Assembly: GCA_964016885.1 (NCBI GenBank)
Contig: OZ024741.1
Span: forward strand, 21,886,001 to 21,950,000
Direction: 5' to 3'
Length of the DNA: 64,000 bases
DNA from: Eledone cirrhosa
Taxonomy: Eukaryota
The notes beneath the pieces were generated by a model. The model made no database searches. It saw only the letters and a program-made list of their open reading frames with translations, and was not told where the DNA came from. Positions 526 to 61,859 of this stretch are shown piece after piece. How positions within the stretch are numbered: the first letter of the stretch is position 1; each line of letters starts with the position of its first letter. A program made the position numbers and the translations under genes.

Positions 526-835
526 GTATGTGTGTATATGTGTGTATATGTGTATATGTGTGTATATATGTGTATATATGTGTATATGTGTATATGTGTA
601 TATGTGTATGTGTGTATAAGTATATAAGTGAGTATATGTGTGTATATATCTACATGTGTATATGGGTATATGTGTGTATATATGTGTATGTGTGTATGTG
701 TGTATAAGTGTACATGTGTGTATATATGTGTATATATTTGTGTATATGTGTGTATATGTGTGTGTATATGTGTGTATATATGTGTGTATATATGTGTATA
801 TATGTGAATATGTGTTTATATGTGTATGTGTGTAT
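526..835. repeat. Compound (TA/TG) microsatellite
   Basis: Direct reading: degenerate tatgtg/tatatg repeats. Confidence 0.95.
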
Positions 836-3800: not shown

Positions 3801-4456
3801 AGAAATTAGGAATAAGAGGATCAGATGTTGTTTACTCGAGAGAAGACTACGTTGGTACGGTCACGTGATGCGCATGAAAGACGACAGCTGTATAAAAAAG
3901 TGCAGGGCGATAAAAATAGACGGTAGCCACGGAGTAGGCAGACCCAGAAAAACCTGGGATGACTTGATAAATTCCGACCTCACACACTTACACCTCTCTA
4001 AGACAATATCACTGGACCGAGATCTTTGGCGCTACACAGTAATACAGAAGACCCGCCTTGCCTAAGTACAAAGCGAAACCTACAGTCAGTAGGCACCTCT
4101 AACAAAAATACACCCCGGCCCCACTACCCCACCCCATCCACTCCACCTCTTCCAATGTAAAGTTATGTTGGTACCACAACATCCAGTCCGAAACAAATGA
4201 GGTCGTGTAGGTGTCACGAAAAAAAAAAAAAACACACAATCCCCGCTGTAATGTGGCCGTGTAGGTAACACGGTAAAAACCTCCCAGTCCACACTGTAAA
4301 CGTGGTTGGTGCTAGGAAGGGCATCCAGCTGTAGAAAACCCGCCAGACAGTCCTGAGCAAGACAACCAATCTTGCCTCAAGTGGGAAAATTCCCGTCCAA
4401 ACCCATGTTAGCGTGGAAGATGGACGTTTAAACGATGATGATGATGATGATGATGA
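836..4456 (+). mobile_element. RTE-clade LINE, near full length, degenerate
   Basis: APE endonuclease motifs (GNINVG, CCIQETRW, SAYAPQ, AGDLNGHVG, QIDYIL), RT motifs (KAFDRV, GVHQGSVLSPLLF, LLYADD), RTE-type C-terminus (GRPRKTW) and a (GAT)n tail at ~4434-4456. Flanked on both sides by TATGTG microsatellite. Confidence 0.92.
860..4065 (+). pseudogene. RTE ORF (APE-RT with inserted PHD-like Cys finger), broken by frameshifts/deletions
   Basis: Consecutive ORF pieces 638-1783, 2044-2502, 2493-2810, 2846-3868 and 3865-4065 are colinear parts of one EN-RT protein. Confidence 0.88.
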
Positions 4457-11724: not shown

Positions 11725-12502
11725 AAGATTTACATATATATATATAAAGTCATAGATATATATGTGTTTTGCAACCGGTCACGTTGTGGCTCAATGAGAA
11801 ATTAATAAATTAAATAAAATAATCAGAGCTATATATCATAAAATATGTCTTTAGAATCACTAGATATAATATATACCATTTCCTCTCCCAATTAGTATAA
11901 TTAACCATATAAAAAATCAATTAGACCAAGCTATAAGAATAAAGGCTCCTATGAAGAAATCTTCGACAAATAACCGAAAGCAGCCTCTTCGCGGTGGCTA
12001 CAATAGATTATTTATCTAACATTTCGACATCATGTAAATCGACCAGATATACAGTCAACTAAACACAATTAGGTGTAAAATTGAACTTAGAAGAATTGCG
12101 TACATACCAAATTACCTCTACCATGGTTTCATCCGTATTTTAAGACATCCGATAACAAGGTATGTCCAGAGCTTCGGAATCATCAGGAGCGAGCTCAAAA
12201 TAAGACATTTAATTTTCCAAAGTGATCGCGCCAAAAATACATTAAAAAATGGCTAAGAATCGTCACGTGGCAGCGGTCAAGTTAGAAAGGATGTGATTAG
12301 TTGCTTACGGCGGATAGTCTTATTGCTAGAAAGCGCAGCCTAATATCGCCGAATTGTATCTCAAGCTAACGGGAGATTATTACATATAAAGATTTACATA
12401 TATATATATATATAAAGTCATAGATATATATGTGTTTTGCAACCGGTCACATTGTGGCTCAATGAGAAATTAATAAATTAAATAAAATAAACAGAGCTAT
12501 AT
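11724..12502 (-). mobile_element. ~664-bp non-coding unit with ~110-bp terminal direct repeat and internal hammerhead (retrozyme/PLE-pLTR-like)
   Basis: aaagatttaca...cagagctatat at ~11724-11834 and ~12388-12502; hammerhead on the minus strand. Confidence 0.65.
12116..12189 (-). ncRNA. Minimal type I hammerhead ribozyme
   Basis: Minus strand: ctc-CTGATGA-ttccg...cggat-GAAA-CCATGG-TA-gag. Helix I ctc/gag, helix II tccg/cgga, palindromic ACCATGGT helix III. Confidence 0.8.
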
Positions 12503-13420
12503 AGAGGCACTGCACCTCAGTAAATTTACTGAAAGGTGGGTGAATGAAGCGAAAATGGCCCGAGTGATTGGGCCTTCTCTGTTTATAAGCCTGTAGGTTG
12601 AGGAAGAGAGCAAAAGGAAGAAAGGAGCACTTGCACAACACGCTCCTTGAGTTGAGGGTTGTTCTATCGATGGGGTATTAAACAACCCATTTGTGGTGCC
12701 CCCCCCCCCCCCCCTATTGGGGATTTCGATTGTTGTAATTGTTTGTTTTTATATTTTTTACACAACTGTATGTAAAATCCCCGGCATGTCTTTGTATTGT
12801 CCCCTTTTCTTGTGCGCCCTTGTGGCTAATAAAGAAATATATCTATCTATCTATCTATCAGTTAAAAGGACTGAGGGCAAACACCTTTCTCTCCGGACAA
12901 CAACTCATCCCCTTCTTTAAGTACCACTTCAGAGGGAAGGTGAGAGTGGAGAGAGAGGTGCTACACCCCAATAAATTCGCTGAAAGGTGGGTGAATGTGG
13001 CAAAAATGGCCCGAGTGAATGGGCCTTCCCTGTATATAAACCTGTAGGTTGAGGAAGATAAACAGAGGGAAGACAGGAACACCTACAAAACGTGTTCCTG
13101 GTGTTGAGGGTTGTTCTATCCACGGGGTGTAAAACAACCCTGCAGTAACGTTCCCTCCTAATGGGAATTTCAATTGTTAAAGTTATTTTTATGTAAAACC
13201 CCCGCCGTCACGTCTTGTAATGTCCCATTTTTGTACGCCCCTGTGGCAAATAAAGAAAGATATCTATCTATCTATCTGCCTCTCCTTATTGAGGACGCCT
13301 TGTTATGTAAACTCCCCCCATTGTACTTGTCCCACTTTTTGATGCCCTGGTGGCAAATAAAAAGAAAATTATCTATCTACCCACCTACCTACCTATCTAT
13401 CTATCTACCCACCTACCTAC

Positions 13421-13451
<31 letters not shown>

Positions 13452-13742
13452 CCCACCTATCTATCTATCTATCTATGGGCCTTCTCTCCATATCAGCCTG
13501 TAGGTTGAGGAAAAGGAGGAGGAGAGGAAAGGAGTACAAGCTCTTCGTACTCCTGGAGATGAGGGTTGCACATTTTTTTCGGGGGTCTGTGTTACCCATA
13601 TAAACTGTCTCCCTCTATTGGGGAAAATCGACTAACTTTTAAATTCCATCTGTGATAACATTTTACACGTTTTTATTGTATGTAAACTTCCCCCTTTGTA
13701 TTTGTCCCCTTCTTTTGTGCCCCTGTGGCTAATAAAGAAATA

Positions 13743-13796
<54 letters not shown>

Positions 13797-13801
13797 CCCA
13801 C

Positions 13802-13846
<45 letters not shown>

Positions 13847-14808
13847 AGGCGCTCGCCGCCCTCTGGCAGGCGGATCCGGTTATCAGTGGAGACTCCACCG
13901 CAACATTCTATAGAGGGCTGGTACGCAGCAGGTGCGACGACGCCCTCGGAGAAGCCCTAGACATGGAGGAGGACGAACTGGCCAGCCTGTTCGGTAGGAC
14001 ATTCAGCCCGGGACCTATGGACAATTTCCAGAAGTCCCTGGCCTGGCAGTGCTACCGAGGGGCTTTACCCGTTCGAGAAAGGCTCTACAGACACGGGCGT
14101 CCGGGTAGGGACCCCGCCAAAAAGATCTGTCCCAGATGCGTGTGCGACGAGGAAACCGTTGCACACGCATTGGTACACTGCTCGGGCGTAGCCGATCTGT
14201 GGGGCTATGTCGAACAACTGCTGTCAAGGGTGGGACCGATCCGGTTGACCACCGAGTCTATTGTAATGATCAAGCCGCCTCCCCCCTTCAAAGATGAAGC
14301 AGAGGCGGTGTTTCTGTGCGTAATAGCCATGGCGAAAGAGGTTGTATGGTGGACGCGTCTGAAAGGACTGAGGTCAGGCACCTTTCTCTCTGGCCAACAA
14401 CTGGTCCGTTTCTTCCGATATCATTTCGGAAGAAGGATCAGGATGGAGAGAGAGGTGCTGCACCCCAGCCGTTTCTATGAAAGATGGGTGAAAGTGGCGA
14501 GAATGGCCCGTGTGAATGGGCCTTCACTCTACATCAGACTATAGGTGAGGAAGATGAAAGACCAAGGGAGCACCCCTTCTCTGTGCTCCTGAGGAGAAGG
14601 GTTGCACACTTTTTTCGGGGGTGTGTGCGACCCCCCAAGGCGCCTCCTCTCTATTGAGGATTTTGTTAAAAATTTTATTTTTTGTTATATCTTATTTTAT
14701 TTTTATATTTTGTTATTGCCTCCTCCTTATTGAGGACGCCTTTTTGTGTAAACTCCCCCCTTTGTACTTGTCCCACTTTTGATGCCCTAGTGGCAAATAA
14801 AAGAAACA

Positions 14809-14855
<47 letters not shown>

Positions 14856-15491
14856 TTATCTATCTATCTATTAGAGAGGTGCTTGGCCACAGGCAGTTTT
14901 ATGAAAGGTGGGTGATAGTGGCGAGAATGGCTCGTGTAAATGGGCCTTCTCTGTATACCATCCTGTAGGTAAAGAAGTGAAGGAGAGGGGAGCACCTTCT
15001 CCATGTGCTCCCCGGGAAAAGGATTGCACACTTTTTCGGGGCTGTGTGCAACCCCCATCACGTCCCCTCCCTTTTGAGGTTGTTTTCGATTATTTTCATG
15101 TCTCCGGACAACAATTGATTCCCTTCTTTAAGTATCACTTTAGAAGGAGAATCAGGGTGGAGAGAGAGGCACTGCACCCCAGTAAATTTACTGAAAGGTG
15201 GGTGAATGAAGCGAAAATGGCCCGAGTGATTGGGCCTTCTCTGTTTATAAGCCTGTAGGTTGAGGAAGAGAGCAAAAGGAAGAAAGGAGCACTTGCACAA
15301 CACGCTCCTTGAGTTGAGGGTTGTTCTATCGACGGGGTATTAAACAACCCATTTGTGGCGCCTCCCCCCTATTGGGGATTTCGATTGTTGAAATTGTTTG
15401 TTTTTATATTTTTTACACGACTGTATGTAAAATCCCCGGCATGTCTTTGTATTGTCCCCTTTCTTGTTGCGCCCTTGTGGCTAATAAAGAA

Positions 15492-15571
<80 letters not shown>

Positions 15572-15580: not shown

Positions 15581-15788
15581 TCTAACGTGTGGAATATCGC
15601 CGGTAAGTTTTTTGTTAATTTCTATGCAAAAAACCGATCTAATTGTTGGAAAAAAATACAACACTTTGTAGATTAACCCCCAAGCTGAATTGTCAGCTGG
15701 GTGGTAATCCCATTTTTCGCCCCTGTAGGGGCGAACATTTTATTTAAAAGTTTGTTTTAAAATATCAAATTTTACAAAGTAAAAAAAC

Positions 15789-17667
15789 TTGAGCAACACT
15801 AGCACGCTGGAGAACGTTAATAGAGAAAAGAGAGAGAAAGAGGCAGATATTAACGTTATATCTGCTTCTGCTGCTATGGACGTTGCCATAGATACTGTCA
15901 CAAAAGAAAAAAATATATCAACATTTGAAAATGTTACAATTTCTACCGCCGAAGCGGAGAAAAATGACAATAACACACGGGAAAACACGGCAAAAAAACC
16001 CATTGACATACATACACATGAAAAAGACATCAACAACTCTACAGATACATCTACACATAAAATTTCCAACAACGATAACATCATTATTAACAACAACATC
16101 ACACAAAAAAAGAAAATGTCTTTTGCTGACACAGTCAACAAGAAACAAGATTTTATAAATCTTGATATCTCCAACGCAAGAGATATGCTCCAGCAAGGGA
16201 GAAAATTTGTAACTTTCGAAGAAAGAGGTGGGTTTAGAATTAACTCACCCCTTGAAATAAAGGAAGACACAAACCGCCGATCAGTCACTTTTAGGACTGT
16301 GTCAAATTCGTCAAGAAAACCGACATTTGTTAATCAGTCAGATATAGAAGATTCTTTCAAGGAGATTCTAGGAAATGTCGATTTTCTCCAGCGAGGAAAA
16401 CAGTACGGAAGTGTTTCCGTACTGTTTAAAAGCGAGGCACTGGCCCCAAAAAACTCTGTGACACCAGTAGTGTCAAAAGCATACACCTTTTTCCCTACAT
16501 ACATGGGGAAAAGGACACAAAAAATAAAAATAAAAAACATACCTCCAAGCATTAACATCTGGTGGATCTTGGCTGGCTTCGTAGAGCCAGAAACAGACAT
16601 AATACTTTCGATACGAAAATCCATTCGACAAAGGTGGGCGGGCACCGATTTGGAGATTCTGTTGCAAATGAAACCGGAGAGAATCTCCAAAATGCCCGAA
16701 AGAGTCGTTATTGATAATAACAACAAAATAAACATTTCGGTAGAAGGAAGAAAATTTCACTGCTTTCGCTGTGGTAGCACATCTCACCTAAAAGCCCCTT
16801 GTCCACAAACACACAACAGCAACATCATAAAAAAAAACGCTATTACCAACACCAACACCAAAACAACCACCACCACCACCACAAGTACAACGACAGACGA
16901 AACGAGCAACCACACCAAAACAAACAGACACTCAACCAACAACAACAGAAAAAACAGAGACAACACCCCTGAAGAACACATCCCCACTCCATCCCACTCC
17001 ATCAAACACTACCACAAACACACATACCGAAACACCACCACCACCACACAACATACCCTTACCCCACACACCTGACGATGATTATTCATCGACGGATGAA
17101 GCTGCTTCTCCTTCTTTAAGTGAAGAAGAGGGAGAACCGCGGAAATCCCCAAAACAAAAAAAGAGACACCACAAAACCCCCAAAACTCCAATCACCAACA
17201 CCAACACACAACCACAGACACAAACAACAACACAAACAACACCACAGTCAAATATCCCCCTATCAGCAAAACCAGCACCAACACCACCCCAAACACAAGC
17301 ACCCACCATAAAAAGAAAACTCCCGGATGAACAACAAACTAAAACAATACAACAAAAACACAAACAACAATACGCATACATCAACACAAACAACAAGAGT
17401 TTGATGGAGGTCATCTCCCAAAACCCCAAGGTGGAGACGGAGGGCAAAACTTTCGTCAAGGCAGAATCGTCTCCACACCTTAAACTTATAAGGGTTTCTA
17501 TGGAAACCTATAAAGACCTGAAAATTAAATTTTCACAGGACGTGGGCAACCCCTGCCACAAACCCATCAACCGCGTCCTGTTGAAAGGTTTCCCCACCCC
17601 ACCCAACACCCCATCCAGCACCCAAATGGAGATTGAACAACCCGATCTCCAGGAAACGAAAAGGTAA
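15789..17667 (+). pseudogene. Tx1 A ORF1 (gag-like, CFRCGSTSHLKAPC knuckle), frameshifted in the low-complexity linker
   Basis: ORFs 15789-17075 and 17401-17667 align with the intact ORF1 at 38602-40434. Confidence 0.85.
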
Positions 17668-17708
17668 GTGCACCTTTCGTCCTTTTTCTCCAACTTTTCT
17701 TCACCAAC

Positions 17709-20700
17709 ATGGCTGGTTTACGAGTTGGAACCGTGAATGTGCGTGGCCTAGGGATGCCCTGGAAACAGGGCCAACTTTTAAACGACCTTAGGTCACACAG
17801 TATGGATGTGATAGCCATCACCGAGTCCAGAATCCACAACAGGCAGCAACTAACCCCCATCTTCGACGACTTTGAGATCTACGCATCTCTCTGTCAGCCA
17901 GGAGGTGGAGGTGGAGGGGCTGTTATGTTTCGGAAGAACCTGGACGTCGGAGTACAGCAAGTACACTTGGACCCGGAGGGTAGACTGGTAGTCCTAGACG
18001 TGAACAGTATCGGAGGTGGAGCCTTCAGACTGGTGGCCGTTTATGCCCCGACCGGGCAATCGCAATCACGGCCAGACTTCTTTAAGCGTCTAGAGTCTTT
18101 TCTGGGAACGTCTCGCTCCTTACTTTTAGTGGGGGACTGGAATGGTATCCTAGATGCACGATGGGACTATGTGGGAGCATGTCCCAGTAGAGCGGGGTGC
18201 AACAGCCTCAAAACTTTAATCGGCCAATTCCAACTGGCCGATAGGTATCGACTGGATTTCCCGACTGCACCACAGTGGACGTGGGTAAACCGCAGTGGGA
18301 CATCTAGATCGTATTTAGATAGGTTCTTCATTAGAGAAAGGGACAAGGATATGTTAAGCTGTCCACGAATGCACATGGTTGCCTATTCAGATCACAAGTT
18401 AGTCGTCTGCTTAGTCAACCGTGATAGAATACATAGACAGGGTCCCGGATACTGGAAGCTGAACGTGTCGTTGCCGGCACGTAAAGCTTACAGTGAACGG
18501 ATAAGTAAACTAGTCAAGCAACGGTTAACGGGAGCCATCGTCAACAATAGATGGTGGTACTCTCTCAAGAAAGCAATTTGAATAGAATCGATAGGGTATA
18601 GCAGAGAGTTAGCCTTAGAGAAAAACAGAATAGAAAGAGAACTAGTAGCCAAGGTAGAGGAGGCACTTAGAAGTGGCAACGCGGCTAGAGTGTTAGCGTC
18701 GAGAACGGCACTGGACCAGTTCTTCGATGCGAAACACGAAGGCTGCGTGGTCAGAAGCAAAACACGTGCTCTAGGAAACGAAGGAGCGAAAGCTGTCAGC
18801 TGGGCCCGAGTGGCGGAGGCAAAAAGTGGCAACAAGTCCACGATTCGGTCTTTGAAAGACCAAAACGGACGCGTGCTACTTGACCCCAAGCAAATGTGCG
18901 CGGCCTTTCAGCGGCACTTTGCGCGACTGTTTGAGCAGAACGACGGTGAGCCGAACGGGGCAATGGACTTTAGTTCATACCTCGACGGCCTGCCGCGTCT
19001 CTCGAACACGGACGCCGAGTTCTGCGAAAGACCGATCACGGACACTGAGATACGGGACGCTCTGGGCCGCTGCGGGAAACGCAAGTCACCCGGTCTAGAT
19101 GGTCTACCCTACGAATTTTACATAGGCATGCCGGACTTGTTCTCTGGCGTCCTCGAAGCCGTCTACTGCAATTGGCAGCAGAACGGGAGAATTCCCAGTT
19201 CTGCAAGCAAGGGCGTAGTAACGCTGATCAGGAAAGACGAGAACAAGGGGGACGAAATTAACAACTTCAGGCCCATAACTCTGCTCAACACAGAGTTAAA
19301 GATTTTGGCCAAGGTGCTAGCGACGAGGTTGGCGCTTGTCGTCGAGAACCTGGTAGGGAAAGCGCAAACGTGTGCAATCCCGACCAGGTCCATACACGAC
19401 AACTTCCACCTCATGCGATACATCATAGAGAGGGTAGGTAGTAAACCCGGCTTCGGTGGGGCTCTGATCAACTTGGATCAGTCTAAGGCATTCGATAGGG
19501 TCGACCATCGATACTTGGAAGCGGTTCTCAAGGCGGCCGGTTTCGGTCCCGTGTTCAGAGGATGGATCGAGGCGATGCACACCAGCATCTGCTCGAGGGT
19601 CAAGGTGAACGGCTACCTATCGGAGCCGTTCGCAATCACGCGTTCCATTCGACAGGGATGCCCTCTCTCCTCCATTCTGTATGTATTGACTACTGCGGAA
19701 ATTGGAGCTGTTGCAGGGCATCCCCCTAGAACCGGGACTGCGCAAAGCGGCGTCGGCTTATGCCGACGACGTAACGGTAATGGTGTCGAGCACCTCGGAA
19801 ATCGGGGTGATCGGCAACATACTGAAAGAATACGAAACGCTGACGGGAGCAAAACTAAACCCAGACAAGTCTGTCGGTTTGCAACTCGGTACGTGGAGAG
19901 GCAAACCGATGACATCCGACAGCATCGTTGGACGCTGGACGGACGGACCGGTGAAATTGCTCGGGGTCTGGTTCGGTCCAGACCTCCAGGTGGAGAAAAA
20001 CTGGAACGAGGTCACGGCCAAGGTGTTTGCACTCACTCAGAAGTGGGCAGAGTGCAAACTGTCCTTGAAAGGTCGAGCGGAGGTGGCGAACACTTTCATA
20101 GCGTCCGTCATCTACTACCGCTTGACTGTCGTGCCTTGTCCCCGTGAACACCTCGCCAAGATGGAACGCATGCTCTTCCAGTTTCTGTGGAAGAAGCAGG
20201 CTCCGCTGGTGAGGAGATCCGTCTGCTGTCAGCACCCTTCCAACGGAGGGCTGGGAATGCCGTGGCTCATGATGCGCAAACATGCGCTGAGGCTGCGGCA
20301 TCTCCAGGTATTCCTCACCGACCCCCAACCGGTGTGGGCACCGTTTGTGAGACAGGCTTTCCCACAGCTCGTCTCGCTAACGGAGCTGCAGTCCTGGGTG
20401 AAGAAAAGACCGAAAACGATGGGCGCCTGGCACATTGAATGCGCTCAGGCGCTCACAGTCCTCTGGCAAGCGGGCGCAGCAATCAGTGGAGACTCCACTT
20501 CGACATTCTATAGAGGGATTGTACGTTACAAGGGCGACGACGTGCTCGGAGAGACTCTGGGCGTCGAAGACGATGAGCTCACCAGTATGTTTGGTAGGAC
20601 TTTCCGCCCGGGACCTATGGACAACTTCCAGAGGTCCCTGGCCTGGCAGTGCTACCGAGGAGCTCTACCGGTTCGTTACAAGATCTACAGGCACGGACGC

Positions 20701-21144
20701 CCTGGCAGGGATCCTTCCAAGAGGACGTATCCAAGATGTGCGCAGGACATTGAAACAGTTCTGCACGCAATTGTACACTGCCCGGGCGTAAGCGACCTGT
20801 GGAACTATGCAGAACAACTGCTGTCGCGTATGGGACAAATACAGTTGACTGCCGAGTCCATAGTAAGGATCAAACCGCCAGACTCTTTCAAAAACGAAAG
20901 AGAGGCGGTTTTCCTCTGTACGGTGGCTATGGTGAAAGAAGTTATATGGTGGACGAGGTTGAGAGGACTGAGGACAGATGCCTTTCTCTCCGGACAACAA
21001 TTGATTCCCTTCTTTAAGTATCACTTTAGAAGGAGAATCAGGGTGGAGAGAGAGGCACTGCACCCCAGTAAATTTACTGAAAGGTGGGTGAATGAAGCGA
21101 AAGTGGCCCGAGTGATTGGGCCTTCTCTGTTTATAAGCCTGTAG
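17709..21144 (+). pseudogene. Tx1 A ORF2 (APE-RT-Cys), one stop and one frameshift
   Basis: ORF pieces 17709-18581, 18690-~19690 and 19702-21144. Confidence 0.9.
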
Positions 21145-21408
21145 GTTGAGGAAGAGAGCAAAGGGAAGAAAGGAGCACTTGCACAACACGCTCCTCGAGT
21201 TGAGGGTTGTTCTATCGACGGGGTATTAAACAACCCATTTGTGGCGCCTCCCCCCTATTGTGGATTTCGATTGTTGAAATTGTTTGTTTTTATATTTTTT
21301 ACACGACTGTATGTAAAACCCCCGGAATGTCTTTGTATTGTCCCCTTTCTTGTTGCGCCCTTGTGGCTAATAAAGAAATCTATCTATCTATCTCTCTCTC
21401 TCTCTATC

Positions 21409-24400
21409 AGACGTGTGGAATTTCGCGGAGAAGTTTCCGTTAATTTATGTAAGAAAAAAACATGAGTTTTTAGTTAAATTTTATATCATTGTGTAACTTG
21501 ACCACCCGTCTGGACCTTCAGGTGGTGGGTCAACTCATTTTCGCCCCTACAGGGGCGGAATATCCATTTAAATATTTTTCTCCATCGAATCTTGGAAAAA
21601 ATATTGTAAAATTTTGATTACGTTATGAACGCTGCGTCCAACGATAATGGTGGTGGAGAGGCGGTAAGACTACAAAGCTCGCAGTCAACAACGTCTTCTT
21701 CACTAGATACTATAGAGATGGAAAGACGAAATGAAAATGTAAAAACGAATTCGTATCCAAACAACACAAATGACACCAAACAGTTCAATGACAACAAAAA
21801 TAACAGCAACACCAATAATGATGATAAAATCAACAATGATAACAACAACAAAGAAAAAAATAAAGACAACACCAATAACACCAGCATCAAAGACAACAAC
21901 AACACCAAGGAAAATACGAACAATACCAACATCGGTGACAACAAGAATAACAACAAGAATAACAACAATAATGACAACACCACCAATACGGATTCCACAA
22001 AGAAACCAAAAATCTCCTTTGCAGAGAAAGTTCAAAAAAAGGAAGAATTGATATATCTCGACATAACAAATGCTGAACAACTTTTAAAGGACGCTCAGAG
22101 ATATGTTAGTTTCGAAAAAAATGGTGCTTTCAGCATCAATTCTCCGGTAGAAATTCGCAAGGAAACTGCTCTCAAAACGATAGTTTTTAGGACAGTTACC
22201 AATTCTACCTGAAAACCAGTCCAATTGTCACAGAAAGAAATTGAACTGGTTTTCAAAAATTCAATGAATGATATTGCATTCATTCAAAGAAGCAAACTTT
22301 TTGGGAGTATTTCGGTACTCATGAAGGATCAATTGACGGCCCAAAATTACTCTGTGTCGCCAATTGTATCCAACCTGTACACCTTTTTCCCTACATACAT
22401 GGGAAAAAGGACACAAAAGATCAGAATCACGAGTGTCACACCAAAGGTGAACATATGGTGGATACTGTGCGGCTTCATCAATTTTGATGAAGACAGAATA
22501 CTGTCAGTAGGAAAGTCCCCCAGAGATGTATTCAATGGGACTAGCATTGAAGTTCTGGTGCAAATGAGCCCAGAGCGAATAGCTATGATCCCACAGCGTG
22601 TACTCCTGGACGGACTCACCTACATAAACCTTTCGGTTGAGGGTAGGCGGCCTTCATGTTACCATTGCTTTAGCAGGGGTCACCTGAGGGCTTCCTGTCC
22701 TAAACTAATGAACCAAAAAAAGGCTCTGCTGCCGACACCCATCAAAACAACACAACCACCAACACCACCACAACAACAACAACACCAACACACAAAAATA
22801 ACCACAACAAACACAGTCCCACCCAACCCCACTCCACCTAAAACCACTGCAAAATCACATACAGACACAACAGCTCCCCAAGACATACCCCTCCCCAATC
22901 ACACAGACGATACAACAGATGAGGCTATCTCGCCATCACCCAGTGAAGACGAGGGAGAACCCCATCGATCGAAAAGAAAGAAAAAACATCACAAAAGCAA
23001 AAAACCAGTAAACACTACCACAAACATACACCCACCAACACAAACAACAAAAATATCACAAACAAAACCCCCACCTCCTGAAAACAAAATACCTACAACA
23101 AAACGAAAGCACACACAAGAACTACAGACAAAAACAAACACAACACAAGAAAATTACACTTACACTTACATAAACACTGAAAACAAAACACTAATGGAGA
23201 CCATCACGAACGACCCTTCGGTGAAAACCGAAGGGAAAACTTTCGCCCACTCTATTAAAAATAGCAAAAAACTGAACCTAAAACTGATTAGGGTCCCTAT
23301 ACAAACTTATAGGTCCCTAAAAGAAACATTTAAGAAGGATGTCGGGAATTCCTGCGTGAAACCACTCAACCGCGTCCTTCTCAAATGTCTCCCCACCACA
23401 GACACCCCCATCCCACCAGACCCCACCCCACCAAACATCTCCGTCCCCACCCCGCCGGAAACCACCACCCATCCAGACAACCCCTCCAACACCCCCATGG
23501 AAATCGTGCGGCCTGGTCCCCAGGAGACGAAGGGTGAGTGATCTCTTTTCCTCTTTTAACTTTTCAGCACCAACATGGCCAATATAAGAGTTGGATGTGT
23601 GAACGTACGCGGCCTGGGGATGCCCTGGAAACAGGGCAAACTCTTAAACGACCTCAGGTCGCACAGTATGGATGTGGTAGCCATTTGCGAGTCCAGGATC
23701 CACAGCGAGCGACAGCTAGCCCCCATCTTCGATGACTTTGAGATCTACGCATCTCTCTGTCAACTGTTGGGGCGGAGTTGCCGTTTTGCTGCGGAAACAC
23801 CTGGGCCTCGTAACACAGACGGTACATCTGGACCCGGAGGGTCGACTGGTGGTCCTAGACGTTGACGGTAGTGAAGGTGGAGCCTTCAGGCTGGTGGCCG
23901 CATATGCCCCATCCGGGACACCGCGGCCAGACTTCTTCAAACGTCTAGAGACTTTTCTGGGAACGTCCCGCTCCTTGCTTTTAGTGGGGGACTGGAATGG
24001 AATCCTAGATGCACGTTGGGACTATGTGGGAGCATGTCCCGATAAAGGGGGGTGTAACAGCCTCAAACAGTTAATCGACCGATTTGACCTGGCTGATAGA
24101 TATCGACTAGATTTTCCGACTGCGCCACTGTAGACGTGGAGTAATCGTAGCGGAACATCTAGATCGTACCTAGATAGGGTTCTAGTTAGAGATAAGGATA
24201 GGGACATGTTAAGCTGTCCACAAATGTTCATAGTTGCCTATTCAGATCACAAACTAGTGACCTGCATGGCCAACCTTGATAGAACCCATAGACAAGGACC
24301 CGGCTACTGGAAGCTGAACTTGTCGTTACCGACAAGCAAAGCCTACAGTAGACGGATTAGCACTTTAGTTAAACAGCACTTGACAGGGGCCATTGTCAAC

Positions 24401-27226
24401 AACAGATGGTGGTACTCTCGCAAGAGGGCTGTTAGATTAGACTCGATAGTTTTTAGTAAAGAATTAGCGTTAGATAGAAATAGAACCGAGAAGGAACTGG
24501 TAGATAAAGTAGAAGAGGCAATTAGAAGTGGCAACGTAGCCAGCGTGCTAGCAACGAGAACGGCCTTGGACCAGTTCTTCGACGCAAAGCACGAGGGCTG
24601 CGTTGTCAGAAGCAAAATACGTGCTCTGGGAAACGAGGGAGCCAAAGCTGTTAGCTGGGCCCGAGTGACGGAGGCAAAAAGTGGCAACAAGTCCACGATT
24701 CGGTCTTTGAAGGATCAAAACGGACGCGTGATACGTGAGCCGAAGCAGATGTGTGCGGCTTTTCAGCGGCACTTTGCTCAGCTGTTCGGGGGGGGGGGGG
24801 GCGTGAGAGGCTATAGATTTCGGTCCATACCTCGACGGCCTACCGCGACTCTCGGACAGCGAGGCAAAGTTCTGCGAAAAGCCGATTTCAGCCACTGAGA
24901 TAGGGGACGCGCTGAGCCAATGCGGCAAACGCAAATCTCCAGGTCTCGACGGTCTACCCTACGAATTTTACGTAGCAATGCCGGACTTATTCTCCGGTCT
25001 CCTGGAAGCGGTCTACTGCAACTGGCAACAGAACGGGAGAATTCCCAGTTCTGTAACCGGGGGCGTGGTCACGTTAGTCAGGAAGGACGAGAATAAGGGG
25101 AATGACATAGGCAACTTCCGGCCCATAACTCTGCTAAACACAGAGTTACAGATTTTGGCCAAGGTGTTGGCAAAGAGGCTGGCGCTTGTCGTCGAAAACC
25201 TGGTGTGAGAAGCGCAGACATGCGCAATCCCGACCTGGTCCATACACGACAACCTCCACCTCATGCGATACATCATAGAGAGGGTAGGGTGTAAACCCGA
25301 CTTCGGTGGGGCCCTGATCAACTTGGATCAGTCTAAGGCTTTCGATAGGGTTGACCATCGTTACCTGGATGCGGTGCTCGAGGGGGCAGGCTTCGGTCCC
25401 GTGTTCAAGGGCTGGATTGCTGCAATGCACAACAGCAACATCTGCTCAAGGGTCAAGGTGAATGGCTACCTCTCAGAGCCGTTCCATATTACGCGATCCA
25501 TTCGACAGGGATGCCCTCTCTCCTCCCTTCTGTACGTACTGACTCTCAAGCCACTACTGCGGAAGTTGGAGCTATTGCAGGGCATCCCTTTGGAACCGGG
25601 ACTGCGGAAAGCGGCGTCGGCCTACGCCGACGACGTGACAGTAATGGTGTCGAGCGTCTCGCAAATCGAGGAAGTCGCCACCTTACTGAAAGAATACGAA
25701 AGTTTCACAGGAGCGAAGCTGAACCGGGACAAATCCATCGGTTTGCAACTCGGATCGTGGAGAGGCAAACCGATGCCTTCTGATGGCGTCGTCGGACGCT
25801 GGACGGAAGGACCGGTAAAGCTGCTCGCGGTCTGGTTTGGTCCGGACGTCCAGGTGGAGAAGAACTGGAACGAAGTGACGGCCAAGGTGTTTGCACTTAC
25901 CCAGAAGTGGGCCGAGTGCAAACTATCCTTGAAAGGTCGAGCGGAGGTGGCGAACACTTTTATAGCGTCCGCCATCTACTACCGCTTGACCGTCGTGCCT
26001 TGTCCAGCCAAAACGCTCGCCAAAATGGAACGCGCGCTCTTCCGATTCCTTTGGAAGAGGCGGGCTCCTTTGGTGAGAAGATCCATCTGCTGCCAACACC
26101 CTTCTAACGGAGGGCTGGGGATGCCGTGGTTGACGATGCGCAAACACGCGCTCAGGCTGCGGCATCTCTACGTATTCCTCACCGGACAACCGGTGTGGGC
26201 CCCGTTCGTGAGGCGAGCCTTCCCACGACTCGTCTCGCTGACCGAGCTGCAGTCTTGGGTCAAGCAAAGACCGAGGAAAATGGGCGACTGGCACATCGAA
26301 TGTGCTCAGGCGCTCACAGCCCTCTGGCAGGCGGACCCGGCGATCAGCGGAGACTCCACTTCGTCATTCTATAGAGGGTTGATCCGCTGCATGTGCGACG
26401 ACGCGCTCGGTGAAACTCTAGGCGTAGAGGAAGATGAACTGGCCAGTCTGTTCGGTAGGACCTTCCGCCCGGGACCGATGGACAACTTCCAAAAGTTCCT
26501 GGCCTGGCAGTGCTACCGAGGAGCTCTACAGACATGGGCGCCCGGGCAGGGACCCTGCAAAAAAGATCTGTCCGAGGTGCGTGCGAGACGAAGAAACCGT
26601 CGCGCACGCATTCATACACTGCCCGGGCGTCACTGACCTGTGGGGCTATGTAGAACGACTATTGTCGCGGGTGGGACCAATCCAGTTGACCACCGAGCCC
26701 ATTGTCATGATCAAACCGCCACCCTCCTTCAAAATCGAAGGAGAGGCGGTTTTCCTTTGTGTGATAGCTATGGCGAAAGAGGTTGTATGGTGGACAAGGT
26801 TGAAAGGGCTGAGGTCAGACACCTTTCTCTCCGGCCAACAACTGATTCTTTTTTTCAAATACTACTTTGGAAGAAGAATCAGGATGGAGAGAGAGGTGCT
26901 GTACCCCAGCAAGTTTTATGAAAGGTGGGTGAAAGTGGCGAGAATGGCCCGAGTGAATGGGCCTTCTCTCTATATTAGCCTGTAGGTTGAGGAAAAGGAG
27001 GAGGAGAGGAAAGGAGTACAAACTCTTCGTACTCGTGGAGATGAGGGTTGCACATTTTTTTTCGGGGTTATGTGTTACCCATATAAACTGTCTCCCTCTA
27101 TTGGGGAAAATCGACTAACTTTTTAAATTCCATTTGTGATAACATTTTACACGTTTTTATTGTATGTAAACTTCCCCCTTTGTATTTGTCCCCTTCTTTT
27201 GTGCCCCTGTGGCTAATAAAGAAACA
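21409..27226 (+). mobile_element. Full-length Tx1-clade element, subfamily B (degenerate)
   Basis: ORF1 21625-23541 (internal stop at 22210-22212; CYHCFSRGHLRASC); ORF2 23575-26985 in several pieces; long (TATC)n at 27227-27295. Confidence 0.92.
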
Positions 27227-27295
<69 letters not shown>

Positions 27296-30200
27296 GGGAT
27301 GGACACACGCGTGTAACTTGCTGAATAAGTTCTGCTTAAATTTCTATAAAAATTCTTGACTGTAAACTTTAATTTTTGTACCATTTTATAGAGGTACTGC
27401 CAGGTCAAATTTTGATCTGGTCAGTCTCTCAAAATATTCTACGCCTTTAGGCGAAATAGTTAACAAAAAGTTTTTTGGGTTTGAAAAGTTAACATTTTTT
27501 AAAAATGGCTGAAGCTTCTTCACCAAAATTCGAAGGAGGAAAGGGGAAGATAAGCTTACAGCTTCCCCCTGCCACTGTCACAGTAGCAGAGGTTAAAGAC
27601 AAAGGTCAGCCAGAGAAAGGATTTTCTCCACCTGCTGACCGACAACTTGACGTTGCCATGGCAACAAACCAAACAACCAGCGGCACCAGCAAAAACAATG
27701 CTACGGACGAAAACAACACCAACAACAATAGCAATAACAACAACAACAAGACCAATAACTGTGATAACAACAACAATGATAACAACAACACCACCAACTA
27801 CAACAGCAACCCAAACAAGGAAAAGTCTCCTTCGCCCAGACGGCAAGGAAAACCCTCGACTATCTGCCAGTAGATATAACCAAAGCGAAGGAGCTACTGG
27901 CAGATGCCAAAAAATACATAATGTACGGGGAAAATGGTGCATTTTCGATCCATTCCCCCCCCCCCCGGAACTAAAAAGCCAGAGACTTCTAAACACTGTC
28001 ATGTTTAGGACAATCTCAAATAAAAGCAAAAAAAACAGCTCAACCATCACAGAGTGAGATAGAGCTGATTTTAAAAGACGTCATGAAAGACATCATATTC
28101 ATTCAGAAGGATAGACTCTACGGGAGTCTATCCATTCTCATGAAGGACAGGGACACAGCAGTGAAACTGTCCATAAAACCAATTACATCCACCGCATACA
28201 CCTTCTACCCTACGTACATGGGTAGAAGGACACAAAAAATAAAAATCCACACCATCCTGCCGATTATGGACATATGGTGGGTTTTGACAGGTTTCCTGAA
28301 CCTAGATGATGACACGCTGGTGTCCATGGGAAAGGCATCGGGTGACGCGTTCAGTGGAACGAGCCTCGAACTTGTAGTTCAAATGAGGCCCGAAAGGATC
28401 GCCCAGATCCCTGAACGCGTCATACTGGATGATCAAACTTTTATCAACATTACCGTTGAGGGTAGGTGACCCTCGTGTTACCTCTGTGGAACCAGAGGTC
28501 ACCTGAGGGTTGTCTGTCCTCAACTTAATAAGAAAACCCCAATCCCGCCTACACCACCAACAACTGCACAACCAACACAATCACCACAACCACTTTTACC
28601 AACACCACAAATAACAACACAACCACCACCACCACCACCACCACCACCACCACGACAACAAGAAAAAACAACAGAGAACACCATCCCAACCAACTCTTCC
28701 CCACCCAAAACAAATACAAAAACACACACAGACACTACAGAACCCCAAAACATACCCCTACCCATCAACACGGATGAGGAACCCCTATCGACGGCACCCA
28801 GCGGCGATGAGGAGGAACCCTTCCAACCCGTGAAAAGAATAAAAAGAAAGAACCGCATGAACAAAAACGAAACAAACACACAAACACCAGCACAAACAGC
28901 ACAAAAATCACAAACAAAAGTTCCCCCTCCCGAAAACAAAACACCTACAACAAAGAGAAAACACATGCAGGAACCGCAGACAAAAACAAACACAACACAG
29001 GAAAAGTACACATACACTTATTTAAACGTAGAAAATAGAAAACTGATGGAGACCATCAGATACAACCCTTTGGTCAAAACCGAAGGGAAAACTTTGGATA
29101 GCTCCAACAAAAACAAAAAAATGAACCTAAAACTGATCAGGGTCCCTATAGGAACTTATAGATCCCTAAAAGAAACATTTGTAGAGGACGTGGGGAATTC
29201 CTGCGTGAAACCAATCAACCGCGTCCTCTACAAAGGCCTCCCCACCACAGGCACCCCCACCTAAGTCATCCCCATCCCACCAGACACCCCTTCCCCACCA
29301 AACATCTCCGTCCCCACCCCGCCAGAAACCACCACCCCACCCAACAACCCATCCCCCACCCTCATGGAAATTGTGCAGCCCGATACCCGGGACGCAGAGA
29401 GGTAAGTGCCTTTTCTCTTCACCACCAACATGGCTATGCTAAGAGTAGGCTGTTTAAATGCGCGTGGCCTGGGCTCAACTTGGAAGCAAGCAATGCTTCT
29501 AAATGACCTCAGGGCACAACGTATAGATGTGATGGTTATTTGCGAGGCCCGGATCAGCAACGTGCGACAGCTGGCCCCCACCTTTGATGACTTTGAGATG
29601 CACGCATCTCTCTGTCAGCCCGGAGGTGGGGGTGGGGTTGTCGTTCTGCTGCAAAAACATCTGGGTCTCGCAACACAGACGGTATATTTGGACTCGGAGG
29701 GTCGACTAGTGGTTCTGGACCTTGGCAGTGGTGAAGGCGGAGCGTTTAGGTTGGTAGCCGCCTACGGCCCTTTCGGGTCAATGCGGCTGGACTTCTTCCA
29801 TCGTCTGGAGACTTTTCTAGGGACGTCCCGCTCCTTGCTATTAGTGGGGGACTGGAATGGTATCATAGATGCACGCTGGGACTACGTAGGGGCCTGTCCC
29901 GATAGAGAGGGGTGTAATAGCCTCAAAGGGTTAATCGGTCGATTTGACCTGGCCGATAGATATCGACTAGATTTTCCGACTGCGCCAACCTGGACTTGGG
30001 CAAATCGCAGCGGATCATCTAGGTCGTACCTAGATAGGTTCTTAGTTAGAAATAAGGATAAGGACTTTTTAAGTTGTCCAAAAATGAGCATGGTTGGCTA
30101 TTCAGACCACAAGTTAGTGAGCTGCATGGTCAACCTTGACAGAACGCATAGACAGGGACCCGGTTACTGGAAGCTCAACTTGTCCTTACCGGCAAGTAAG

Positions 30201-32830
30201 GCTTACAGGGACCGGATTAGCACTTTAGTTAAGGAGCGGTTGACGGGCGCCATCGTCAACAGCAGGTGGTGGGGGATCTCTCAAAAGAGAGATTAGAGTA
30301 GTCTCTATAGAATTTAGTAAGGAGTTAGCCTCAAATAGAAATAGGAAGGAAAGGGAGTTGGTAGATAGTGTAGAAGAGGCAATTAGAAGCGGCGACCTGG
30401 CCAGAGTGCTAGCGTCGAGAACGGCCCTGGGCCAGTTCTTCGACGCGAAACACGAAGGCTGCATCGTCCGAAGCAAAATACGTGATCTGGGAAACGAGGG
30501 GACCAAAGTTGTCAGTTGGGCCCGCGTGACAGAAGCCAAAATGCTGAACCAATGCGGCAAACGCAAATCTCCAGGTCTCGACGGTCTACCCTACGAATTT
30601 ACGTAGCAATGCCGGACTTGTTCTCCGGTCTCCTGGAAGCGGTCTACTGCAACTGGCAGCAGAACGGAAGAATTCCCAGTTCTGTGACCAAGCGCGTAAT
30701 CACGTTAGTCAGGAAGGACGAGAATAAGGGGGATGACATAGGCAACCTCCGGCCCATAACTCTGCTAAACACAGAGTTACAGATTTTGGCCAAGGTGTTG
30801 GCAAAGAGGCTGGCGCTTGTCGTCGAAAACCTGGTGGGAGAAGCGCAGACATGCGCAATCCCGACCTGGTCCATACACGACAACCTCCACCTCATGCGAT
30901 ACATCATAGAGAGGGTAGGGTGTAAACCCGACTTCGGTGGGGCCCTGATCAACTTGGATCAGTCTAAGGCTTTCGATAGGGTTGACCATCGTTACCTGGA
31001 TGCGGTGCTCGAGGGGGCAGGCTTCGGTCCCGTGTTCAGGGGCTGGATTGCTGCAATGCACAACAGCAACATCTGCTCAAGGGTCAAGGTGAACGGCTAC
31101 CTCTCAGAGCCGTTCCATATCACGCGATCCATCCGACAGGGATGCCCTCTCTCCTCCCTTCTGTACTCTCGAGCCACAACTGCGTAAGTTGGAGCTATTG
31201 CAGGGCATCCCTCTGGAACCGGGACTGCGAAAAGCGGCGTCGGCCTATGTCGACGACGTGACAGTGATGGTGTCGAGCGCCTCGCAAATCGGGGAGATCG
31301 GCACCTTACTGGAGGAATACGAAAGGTTCACAGGAGCGAAGCTGAACCGGGACAAATCCGTCGGTTTGCAACTCGGAACGTGGAGAGTCAAACCGATGGC
31401 CTTCCGATGACGTCGTCGGACGCTGGACGGAAGGACCAGTAAAGCTGCTCGGAGTCTGGTTTGGTCCTGATCTCCAGGTGGTGAAGAACTGGAACGAGGT
31501 GACGGCCAAGGTGTTTGCGCTCACCCAGAAGTGGGCCTAGTGCAAACTATTCTTGAAAGGTCGAGCGGAGGTGGCAAACACTTTTATAGCGTTCGTCATC
31601 TAATACCGCTTGACCGTTGTGCCTTGTCCAGCCAAAAGCTCACCAAAATGGAGCGCGCGCTCTTCCAATTCCTTTGGAAGAAACGAGCTCCTTTGGTGAG
31701 AAGATCCATCTGCTGCCAACACCTTTCAAACGGAGTGCTGGGGATGCCGTGGCTGACGATGCGCAAACACGCGCTCAGGCTGCGGCATCTCTACGTATTC
31801 CTCACCAGACAACAGGTTCGTGAGGCGAGCCTTCCCACGACTCGTCTCGCTGACTGAGCTGCAGTCCTGGGTCAATCAAAGACCGGGAAAATGGGCGACT
31901 GGTACATCGAATGTGCTCAGGTGCTCACAGTCCTCTGGCAAATGGACCCGGCGATCAGTGGAGACTCCACTTCGACATTCTATAGAGGGTTGGTCCGCAG
32001 CAAGTGCGACGACACGCTCGGAGAAACTCTAGGCGTAGAGGAGGACGAACTGGCCAGTCTGTTCGGTAGGACATTCCGCCCGGGACCAATGGACAACTTC
32101 CAAAAGTCCCTGGCCTGGCAGTGCTACCGAGGAGCTCTACCAGTTCGAGACAAGCTCTACAGACACGGGCGCCCGGGTAAGGACCCTTCGAAAAAGATCT
32201 GTCCGAGATGCGTGCGCGACGAGGAAACCATCGCACACGCATTTGTACACTGCCCAGGCGTTACCGACCTGTGGGGCTATGTAGAACGACTATTGTTGCG
32301 GGTGGGACCAATCCAGTTGACCACCGAGTCCATTGTCATGATCAAACCGCCACCCTCCTTCAAAAACGAGGGAGGGGCGGTTTGCCTATGTGTTATGGCT
32401 ATGGTGAAAGAGGTAAAAAGGGCTGAGGTCAGACACCTTTCTCTCCAGCGAGCAGCTGATTCGTTTTTTCAAATATCATTTTGGAAGAAGAATCAGGATG
32501 GACAGAGAGGTGCTTTACCCCAGCAAATTTTATAAAAGGTGGGTGAATGTGGAAAAGATGGCCCGAGTGGTTGAGTCTTCTCTCTATATAAGCCTGTAGG
32601 TTGAGGAAAAAGAGGAAGAGAGGAAGGGAGTACTCACTCTTGGTGCTCCTGGAGATGAGGGTTGTACATTTTTTCGGCGTGTGTACAACCCCTGTGTAAC
32701 ACCTCCCCCCTATTGGGGATTTCAATTGTTATTTGTTATTGTATTAATAGTTTTATTTTCATATACCTGTATGTAAACTCCCCATTTGTATTTGTCCCCT
32801 TCTTTTGTGCCCTTGTGGCTAATAAAGAAA
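27296..32830 (+). mobile_element. Full-length Tx1-clade element, subfamily C (degenerate, internal deletion near 30540)
   Basis: ORF1 pieces 27505-29405; ORF2 from ATG 29430 to TAG 32599 with many disruptions; same 3' terminal motif. Confidence 0.9.
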
Positions 32831-34850: not shown

Positions 34851-35166
34851 CGTTCTCTCTCTCTCTCACACACACATACACACACACTCACGCACAGATA
34901 TATGTGTGTGTGAGTGAGTGTGAGATGGATAGATAAATTTCTATTTATTTGCCACGAGGGCACAAAAGAAGGGGACAAATACACAGTGGGGGAGTTTACA
35001 TAAATCGAGTAAAGAAAAAGGAATAACAATAATAATATAATAATAAAAAGTCCTCAAAAGGGAGGGGGCGTGTTGGGGATTGCACATACCCCCGAAAAGT
35101 GTGCAACCCTTTTCGCGGGGGAAGCCCAGAGAGGAGGCGCTCCCCCTTTCCTCTTCACTTCTTCAC

Positions 35167-38100: not shown

Positions 38101-38605
38101 TAACCCCTTGAGGCTGCTACACCCCCCTCTATCGAGACATGCCCCTGCATAGTCCCAACGCGCATCTAGGATTCCATTCCAGTCCCCCACTAAAAGCAGG
38201 GAACGCGACGTTCCTAGAAAAGTCTCCAGACGCTGGAAGAAGTCGGCTCTTTCCGCCCCGAAGGGAGCATAAAGACCGACCAGTCTGAAAGCCCCGCCTT
38301 CACCGCCTCCGACGTCCAGCACCAGTAATCGACCCCCCGGGTCCGAGTGAACAATCTGTACGTCGAGAGTCAGACGTTTATCCAGCAGTACGGCAACTCC
38401 CCACCCCGCCTCCGGGTTGACAGAGAGATGCGTGCATCCCAAAGTCATCGAAGGCGGGCGCCAGCTGTCTCACGCTGCTGATCCGACTCTCGCAAACAAC
38501 CATCACATCTATACTTTGTGACCTGAGGTCACTTAGAAGCTTTGCTTGCTTCCAAGCTGAGCTCAGGTCACGCGCGTTCAAACAGCCAACTCTCAATTGA
38601 TCTAT
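35167..38605 (-). pseudogene. Tx1 G ORF2 (APE-RT-Cys); one frameshift near 38400 and ATA at the start position
   Basis: ORFs 38378-38596 (N-terminus) and 35167-38448 (remainder). Confidence 0.85.
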
Positions 38606-46351: not shown

Positions 46352-46384
46352 AGATAGATAGATAGATAGATAGCTAGATAGATA

Positions 46385-56248: not shown

Positions 56249-56365
56249 CATCTCATAAATAATATGGTTCTTTTTAGACTTCTTTTATTTTCAACAATTA
56301 AGATAAACTGCAATTTTCAAAGATTGCATCAAGAATGAGGACAAGTTGTATTTAATTTCTGCTTT

Positions 56366-61601: not shown

Positions 61602-61713
61602 GTTTATCCCCACCTCCGAGTTGTAATGCATGTAATTGAAAAAAAACTGCATTATTTATGGGATGAACCAGTAGATGGTCTAATGACATGGTATGGTCCC
61701 TTAACTCCTGAAG
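61587..61713 (+). CDS. Candidate host coding exon starting in the last satellite unit
   Basis: Open frame PVYGGVYPHLRVVMHVIEKKLHYLWDEPVDGLMTWYGPLTPE; donor candidates AAG|GTAGGG (61714) or ATG|GTATGG (61691). Confidence 0.45.
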
Positions 61714-61859
61714 GTAGGGGCACCATACTGACAGTGTTTCTAGGGTATTTCTAAACATTGTGGAGCCTATTTCCTCTCTAAACCTGAATACAGCAGATTT
61801 CTTCCAGAATAGGATAGAGAGAATGAGAGAATAGAAGTGAGAAAGAGATAGAGGGGAAG

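Follow-up and report, generated by a model that had tools for sequence, protein, structure and literature searches.

A conserved U1-type splice-donor-like site and a predicted ORF2-closing RNA helix in L1/Tx1-group retrotransposons of Eledone cirrhosa

How the bicistronic RNA of a long interspersed nuclear element (LINE) yields much protein from its first open reading frame (ORF1) and little from its second (ORF2), and how it evades host splicing and surveillance, remains an open question. Among Ty1/Copia elements (Drosophila copia and Arabidopsis EVD shGAG), a conserved U1-type 5′ splice donor likewise ends the structural gene, and U1 is described there as both permitting a Gag-only RNA and protecting the full-length RNA (PMC5580714). 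Human L1 provides cases of LINE RNA with functional splice sites, the spliced RNA being capable of leaving genomic copies (SpIREs and SpORF2; PMC5860796, PMC2896524). The Tx1-clade microsatellite targeters Kibi, Koshi, and crocodilian Tx1 possess, like the elements described here, two ORFs, with an APE endonuclease, a reverse transcriptase (RT), and a zinc-binding end, and share with them a CCHC-containing ORF1 and insertion into microsatellites, the target here being (TATC)n (PMC4494074); Octopus vulgaris, too, is recorded as having recently active L1-Tx1 families (PMC13282606). The present analysis concerns a 64,000-nucleotide (nt) stretch of the 3.0-Gb Eledone cirrhosa assembly (GCA_964016885.1, contig OZ024741.1, positions 21886001 to 21950000; hereafter, the window), in which related LINE copies of the L1/Tx1 group are stacked at 12.5 to 47.4 kb with (TATC)n between copies, and draws on motif searches made genome-wide in the same assembly. 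An initial annotation had proposed that ORF2 of these elements lies exactly inside an intron. That observation is partly confirmed and its intron reading partly supported here, while a predicted ORF2-closing RNA zipper over a U1-type site emerges as the better-supported feature.

The five consensus donors on which the intron proposal was founded are all present at the ORF1 ends, namely, aag/GTAAGT at 17664 in copy A (site 17661 to 17669; the slash marks the presumptive exon end), agg/GTGAGT at 23534 in copy B, gag/GTAAGT at 29402 in copy C, and gag/GTAAGT at 38640 and 44356 on the minus strand in copies G1 and G2, and a pyrimidine tract follows each of them. When loci were located through an ORF2-start motif that makes no use of the donor (4,470 matches, 30 loci fetched), G/GTRRGT was found within 81 nt upstream of the ORF2 start in 28 of 30, compared with one to three such sites per 3.3-kb ORF2. 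Across 15 donor representatives, positions -1, +1, +2, +5, and +6 are invariant and positions +3 and +4 vary only between A and G, while none of the columns from -20 to -2 is invariant; as a neutral yardstick, a comparable set of 15 shows invariance at 18 of 78 four-fold degenerate ORF2 sites. The motif overlaps or shortly precedes the ORF1 stop codon in all lineages examined, and it does so in phase 2 of ORF1 in lineages A, C, I, J, B2, B3, and K, in phase 1 in B, H, and Lt, and in phase 0 in G. Since it is kept across three phases and across ORF1s that are only about 30% identical between some lineages, it is held at the nucleotide level. As in Copia-type elements, a conserved donor ending the structural gene is a family-wide feature. 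Its range is nevertheless bounded: among metagenomic relatives (80 loci, 23 to 43% identical, of which 51 have a long ORF and 32 a locatable ORF2 start), GTRRGT was present near the ORF2 start in only 1 of the 32, and the donor is therefore not a general L1/Tx1 trait. All 30 best matches to the A ORF1 end run into the spacer (40 scored of 1,615 candidates, one being the window itself), a number too small to carry weight by itself. A second donor-like motif stands directly after the ORF2 stop in several 3′ untranslated regions (UTRs), reading AG/GTAGGT, AG/GTGAGG, or AG/GTAAAG (locus L273, 5677-5690; window 14545-14550 and 14969-14974); lineages A, B, E, and K are without one.

The spacer extending from the donor to the ORF2 start is predicted to pair with the ORF2 stop codon and the 45 to 50 nt that follow it, with energies of -32 to -50 kcal/mol in 16 native pairs of arms, from which two chimeric copies were left out; at most 2 of 300 dinucleotide shuffles were as stable in 13 of the 16. 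In copy A (plus strand), the predicted 5′ arm (17664 to 17709) comprises the donor and the pyrimidine spacer up to the ORF2 ATG at 17709, and the predicted 3′ arm (21140 to 21182) comprises the stop codon TAG (21142-21144), the purine-rich start of the 3′ UTR and, last, a stretch complementary to the donor. The corresponding arms lie at 23528 to 23575 (with the donor) and 26981 to 27029 (with the stop at 26985) in copy B on the plus strand and, on the minus strand, at 38609 to 38646 (with the donor) and 35128 to 35167 (with the stop at 35167) in copy G1. Cognate arms average -40.5 kcal/mol versus -32.7 for arms swapped between elements, and the centred energies are -7.3 for cognate pairs, -5.3 for pairs from the same clade, and +1.3 for pairs from another clade; none of 100,000 permutations, which do not remove relatedness, reached the cognate advantage. 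Of approximately 460 to 500 windows per element, the one after the stop pairs best with the spacer in nine of ten copies. When the whole 3,846 nt of copy A are folded to minimum energy, 17664-17686 pairs with 21160-21182, such that the donor half of the helix is formed. At least five of the nine donor positions are paired in all 16 helices, 15 of which contain G-U pairs, and the helix is also present in lineage K, in which no acceptor AG is found at the stop. At its base, the ACA preceding the ORF2 ATG pairs with the UGU preceding the stop; within the same start context (CCAACA), the CC is paired to the last base of TAG and to the G after it, both sides being changed in K. The pairing of stop bases with the start context would mostly account for the conservation of TAG/GT without splicing. 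In the two chimeric copies (window copy C and L270), by contrast with the native pairs, the arms rank only 17th and 16th of 18 as partners for each other, and 65 and 21 of 300 shuffles are as stable. On this evidence, the helix is probably a real, selected RNA structure; it is predicted to be a long-range zipper that holds ORF2 in a loop, overlies the donor, and brings the start and stop codons of ORF2 next to each other. The U-rich tract and the purine-rich post-stop segment, the latter initially taken for a splicing enhancer, are accordingly better explained as the two arms of one co-evolving helix.

A small hairpin in the last ORF2 codons (21105 to 21122 in copy A, plus strand, inside the proposed intron) was predicted in all 12 of the 3′ ends folded. 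Both of its arms are changed together in L300 (C-G to U-A, with two amino acid changes), and one side only is changed in L299.

As the best reading of these features, to which we assign a probability of about 0.42, we propose that the zipper masks the U1-type site once ORF2 has been fully transcribed and that the completed RNA is thereby kept unspliced. U1 would bind the donor while ORF2 is being transcribed and would be displaced on emergence of the 3′ arm, the helix being predicted at approximately -40 kcal/mol versus approximately -10 kcal/mol for the 9-nt donor duplex. Only RNA extending past the ORF2 stop would then escape splicing or U1-linked retention, with polyadenylation some 220 nt further on followed by export and copying. 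A donor that goes unused can keep an RNA nuclear. In lineages with TAG/G, a fraction of the transcripts could splice before the zipper closes, giving an ORF1-only mRNA, and in the cytoplasm, the helix would be interposed between the ORF1 stop and the ORF2 start, likely throttling ORF2 translation too. A dual role of this kind has a parallel in EVD, in which U1 is reported to permit splicing and to guard the full-length RNA (PMC5580714). The process may also be pictured as a co-transcriptional race, in which U1 loads at the ORF1 end and, once transcription reaches the ORF2 stop, the acceptor and the U1-mimicking 3′ arm appear together, splicing leading to an ORF1-only mRNA and zipping to a protected, ORF2-looped genomic RNA with its start and stop codons in contact; this version is conceivable, if somewhat doubtful.

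Several findings weigh against the proposal. Three of the 16 native pairs are weak relative to their shuffles (10, 14, and 47 of 300 as stable), the best partner of the spacer lies elsewhere in one of ten elements, and the lower half of the helix pairs with a competing segment when copy A is folded in full. The permutation test leaves relatedness between lineages in place. Covariation is modest: across 128 pair columns, changes occur 8 times on both sides and 32 times on one side only, and 36 of 419 cells are broken, in alignments that were themselves fitted to the prediction. Eleven of the 15 donor representatives were located by the donor motif, such that their invariance is partly a matter of selection, and the variation at +3 and +4 also matches the three stop codons. 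Canonical poly(A) signals are absent from ORF2 in 6 of 15 copies and present only at the stop in 2 more, which leaves little for U1 to suppress. The helix, the binding of U1, the fate of the RNA, and splicing itself are all sequence-based predictions. Suppression of internal poly(A) sites by U1 was also considered as the main role of the donor, for which the case is weak, such sites being scarce and not shared between copies. Back-splicing of ORF2 into a circle, prompted by the donor-like motifs that open several 3′ UTRs, was rejected, as an AG before the ORF2 start occurs only in B-type lineages.

Alternatively, the complementarity may have no function at the RNA level and have been produced by composition bias, template switching, or end-to-end conversion, with the motifs persisting by descent. 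Pyrimidine and purine tracts pair readily, as the average of the swapped pairs illustrates; chimeras with mismatched arms, including window copy C and L270, did insert, and cognate and swapped pairs could not be told apart by comparing sense with antisense stability. The pairing is nevertheless matched to lineage over 67 to 90% identity and more stable than composition-keeping shuffles, and the prevalence of G-U pairs and a donor that stays invariant while the region around it is hypervariable would likewise be unexpected, rendering an absence of function quite improbable.

The acceptor side of the proposed intron proved less uniform than the donor side. ORF2 ends reading TAG/GT were found at 21144, 26985, 32599, 35167, 40877, 14544, and 13047, as initially listed, and at 14968, the last of these having been placed one base off (at about 14967). 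TAG is not, however, a rule for the family as the initial annotation had suggested. Among 30 loci picked by a C-terminal ORF2 motif alone, out of 15,624 matches genome-wide, 20 end in TAG/GT, 5 in TAA/AT, and 3 in TAG with other following bases, while 2 carry point changes; TAA ends made up 20 of the 100 matches listed (counted by eye), and other lineages end in TAG/TT, TAG/GC, or TAG/AT. In the distant metagenomic relatives, TAG is the stop codon of 6 among 45 closed ORFs. Lineage K, which with 3,120 ORF1 ends is comparable to A, B, C, and G together (3,536), has the donor and a TAA stop in all seven loci with both ends. The acceptor is thus not conserved in the manner of Copia-type elements, and free variation of donor and stop identity, which had been named as evidence against the intron, applies in part: the stop varies, in a large lineage, whereas the donor does not. 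The next AG after the stop of K belongs to an AAG whose upstream tract is poor (10 of 20 pyrimidines); ATTAAA, a variant poly(A) signal, directly follows its ORF2 stop within the helix arm (L292, 6135-6145). The claim that sequence flanking the splice-like sites is otherwise divergent was overstated, since ORF2 is 67 to 97% identical among the copies compared and the acceptor-like tract is coding (G-P-S-L-Y/F-I). What stands of the proposed intron is a real and conserved donor and, in the clade represented in the window, a possible splice to the stop AG; a universal acceptor does not.

In the splicing model, the ORF1-end donor would be joined regularly to the stop AG, giving an ORF1-only mRNA that sets the ORF1:ORF2 ratio, while the helix would only tune the spliced fraction. 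In its favor, a strong donor always lies at or just before the ORF1 stop, and within the A/B/C/G/I/J clade, the 20 nt upstream of the stop AG are the most pyrimidine-rich of all 98 to 111 YAG sites in six of seven copies and rank second of 118 in copy A, although these copies represent one shared ancestry. The corresponding tracts rank only 6th to 19th in A2, H, and Lt, 5 of 15 copies have a competing AG 7 nt upstream, only 2 of 15 have a YTRAY branch motif, and lineage K is without an AG at its stop. Moreover, the donor would be concealed by the helix, not exposed. The precedent of copia and EVD (PMC5580714) favors splicing in principle.

The predicted splice products speak in both directions. 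The tails given in the initial annotation, basic in A and C and short in B and G, are reproduced in the window copies, but that of copy C derives from a chimera, the usual 3′ partner of native C giving an immediate stop. In 8 of 12 native pairs, the predicted splice ends ORF1 within one to three codons, where about 4.7 would be expected from random phase, a threshold chosen afterwards and applied to related lineages; in the other four, it adds 8 to 44 codons. The short tails are suggestive at most, a weak hint of splicing, and the basic tail is not conserved, predicted tails ranging from 1 to 44 codons, which counts against a regularly made product.

Spliced RNA might also have been copied into the genome, and the proposed search for copies lacking precisely ORF2 was therefore performed. 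No such copy was found in the combinations searched, which did not cover J/B3, Lt, and H-to-K: searches for the A/B junction and for the H and I junctions gave no match, and a further junction search returned 14 matches versus 10 for a reversed control, none being an element junction. HAL1-like copies, in which ORF1 is joined directly to the 3′ end, were likewise absent from these combinations. All 24 copies which deviate right after an A, B2, or C donor continue into ORF2, as do 10 of 12 such copies of lineage K, of which one of the others is a local inversion and one is joined to unrelated DNA. In a K copy at L328 (1518 onward), the donor position is followed by unrelated sequence starting with GT, for which truncation, insertion, or a spliced chimera are possible. 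A new junction shared by 12 copies (L106, L109, L112, and nine more) was rejected as a splice product; these form a recombinant lineage in which a B2-type ORF1 end is joined to a C-type end and the donor is kept 23 nt further downstream. When contigs from four runs of unrecorded kind in one study were compared with 15600-27150, none of the 15 joints listed, of 403, connects 17663 to 21145, a count that speaks neither for nor against splicing because such contigs lose rare forms and the kind of run is unrecorded. The lack of spliced copies is set against 3,536 and 3,120 intact ORF1 ends and 15,624 ORF2 ends. LINE proteins prefer their own RNA (PMC5860796), and the conserved hairpin within the would-be intron may serve RT recognition, such that its removal could explain why spliced RNA is not copied; the lack thus weighs against abundant germ-line splicing without excluding splicing. 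On balance, we regard regular splicing as somewhat unlikely.

An intron of 50 to 60 nt, using the same donor and an AG just within ORF2 and so fusing ORF1 to ORF2, is suggested by the pyrimidine tract that precedes AGs in the first ORF2 codons and by an in-frame AG in several lineages. No in-frame AG is available to A, A2, or G, however, and although an RNA of this type keeps ORF2 and should be copied in cis, only 12 spacer-less copies were found (K and Lt not covered), with scattered breakpoints of which just one falls at the donor and an AG, out of frame. Such a fusion is very improbable.

A purely translational helix, holding the ORF2 start against the stop such that re-initiation is blocked or channelled, is a further alternative. 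The donor look-alike would then be an arginine codon, a stop codon, and a G, fixed by helix pairing and descent. The helix ends precisely at the ORF2 start and stop codons, and the GTAA, GTGA, and GTAG of phase-2 lineages equal G plus the three stop codons; RNA structure acts in the coupling of SART1 ORFs, and the spacer of L1 has been proposed to loop (PMC5972666). Lineage G adds an argument of its own, in that ATA replaces ATG at the ORF2 start in all 11 copies read and overlaps the ORF1 stop, a configuration that would fit coupled re-initiation, and the ORF2 start is open in 3 of the 11. The ATA start favors some translational role. It is seen at 38600-38608 and 44316-44324 (minus strand) and in L082, L085, and L098, where it overlaps the ORF1 TAG; ORF1 extends 12 codons beyond the donor to reach it, and ORF2 would need non-AUG re-initiation or a -1 slip on an A run. 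A G-rich poly-Gly run near the ORF2 start (38430-38470, minus strand, and G-type loci) varies in length, the frame being shifted in 7 of 11 G copies. Against an exclusively translational account, the motif is exact in phase-1 and phase-0 lineages, in which its bases are not a stop, and +5 and +6 are kept although noncoding in phase-2 lineages; pairing alone would permit co-variation, and the donor pairs in different registers between lineages. An exclusively translational helix consequently appears unlikely. Masking of a U1-type site by the zipper, as proposed above, remains our preferred reading and would leave room for such an additional effect on ORF2 translation.

Matches to PF03372 (APE endonuclease) and PF00078 (RT) were obtained on ORF2 of G1 and G2, and PF13966 (C-terminal zinc-binding) matched two 3′ fragments just below cut-off and is also present on the closest homologs; the domain search gave no RNase H match on ORF2. 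ORF1 had no Pfam match, a CCHC knuckle nevertheless being visible in its sequence, and look-alikes retrieved with the G1 ORF1 carry zf-CCHC at 0.90 to 0.91, which is taken as a lead only. The closest named ORF2 homolog is that of Argonauta hians (63%), in keeping with an octopod host; the other named ones are a Ciona pol-like protein (27%) and a Trametes protein labelled Transposon TX1 (26%). Judged by its sequence, the element is an L1/Tx1-group non-LTR (long terminal repeat) retrotransposon of a known kind, with an APE- and RT-containing ORF2, a zinc-binding end, and a separate ORF1. The Tx1 label suits this architecture and the microsatellite target, and is drawn from those two rather than from an RT tree. 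TATC units adjoin all 30 A-type 3′ ends, well above the 20% of flanks used to define a target (PMC4494074); the 5′ side of copy A carries (ATCT)n, and the 3′ TATC may alternatively be a repeat tail.

Copy A is a full-length element (15585 to 21380, plus strand, ends approximate) flanked by (TATC)n microsatellites, with broken ORFs. Its ORF1 (15783 to 17667) consists of open pieces at 15783-17075 and 16831-17667 with the CCHC knuckle and a long low-complexity tail, and its TAA stop (17665-17667) lies within the donor. The interrupted ORF2 (17709 to 21144), encoding APE, RT, and the C-terminal zinc-binding region, forms the predicted helix loop, that is, the intron originally proposed, and a poly(A) signal AATAAA (21369 to 21374) precedes the (TATC)n. 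Copy C, from donor to ORF2 stop at 29402 to 32599 (plus strand), is a chimera of a C-type 5′ part and a B-like 3′ part (74% and 89% identical to B, respectively), whose arms pair no better than shuffles; of nine C-type starts for which a 3′ end some 3.45 kb off is listed, eight have a D-type end, as counted by eye. In G1, the ATA start of ORF2 overlaps the ORF1 stop, and G2, from the donor at 44356 to the stop at 40877 (minus strand), is 99% identical to it. Stacked 5′-truncated 3′ ends of several lineages, separated by (TATC)n and including the stops at 13047, 14544, and 14968, occupy 12500 to 15520 (plus strand). An A-type 3′ fragment in two pieces at 46350-47375 (minus strand) apparently duplicates part of ORF2. 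Elsewhere in the window, 632-3868 contains another, broken LINE with an endonuclease, an RT, and a PHD finger after the RT, and 56290-61900 a 5.5-kb tandem array of an approximately 22-nt unit, with three minus-strand frames open, which is probably a minisatellite.

A family of thousands of full-length copies in many lineages constitutes a natural co-variation series for the predicted 45-bp helix, and since the arms may be swapped between lineages, helix function is directly testable. These elements also provide a caution, as RNA pairing can by itself give rise to an acceptor-like TAG/GT and to tracts that look like enhancers.

In the open-access literature, supplements and Repbase lying outside that scope, neither an ORF1-end donor nor an ORF2-closing helix was found described for LINEs, and a U1-loading co-transcriptional switch of the kind considered here is not known to have been described for non-LTR elements. 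Copia and EVD differ in being LTR elements in which splicing is shown by RNA data (PMC5580714), and they are not known to have a donor-masking end-to-end helix; unlike them, the present element is a LINE known from its sequence, with an acceptor that is not universal. The splices of human L1 remove the 5′ UTR or ORF1 and keep ORF2, the opposite of the splice proposed here (PMC5860796, PMC2896524), and SpIRE97/622 represent approximately 1.8% of full-length human insertions, whereas no spliced copy was found in our searches. HAL1, HeT-A, and Ag-Sponge, which combine an ORF1 with a 3′ end and lack ORF2, have the form that the proposed splice would produce, but they are genomic families that arose by internal deletion (PMC5786205), none of which was recovered here in the combinations searched. 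In the termination-reinitiation systems of SART1, L1, and caliciviruses, RNA structure near the stop/start junction governs the second ORF (PMC5972666); the elements described there are local, whereas the predicted partner strand in the E. cirrhosa family lies 3.5 kb away, past the stop codon of the second ORF.

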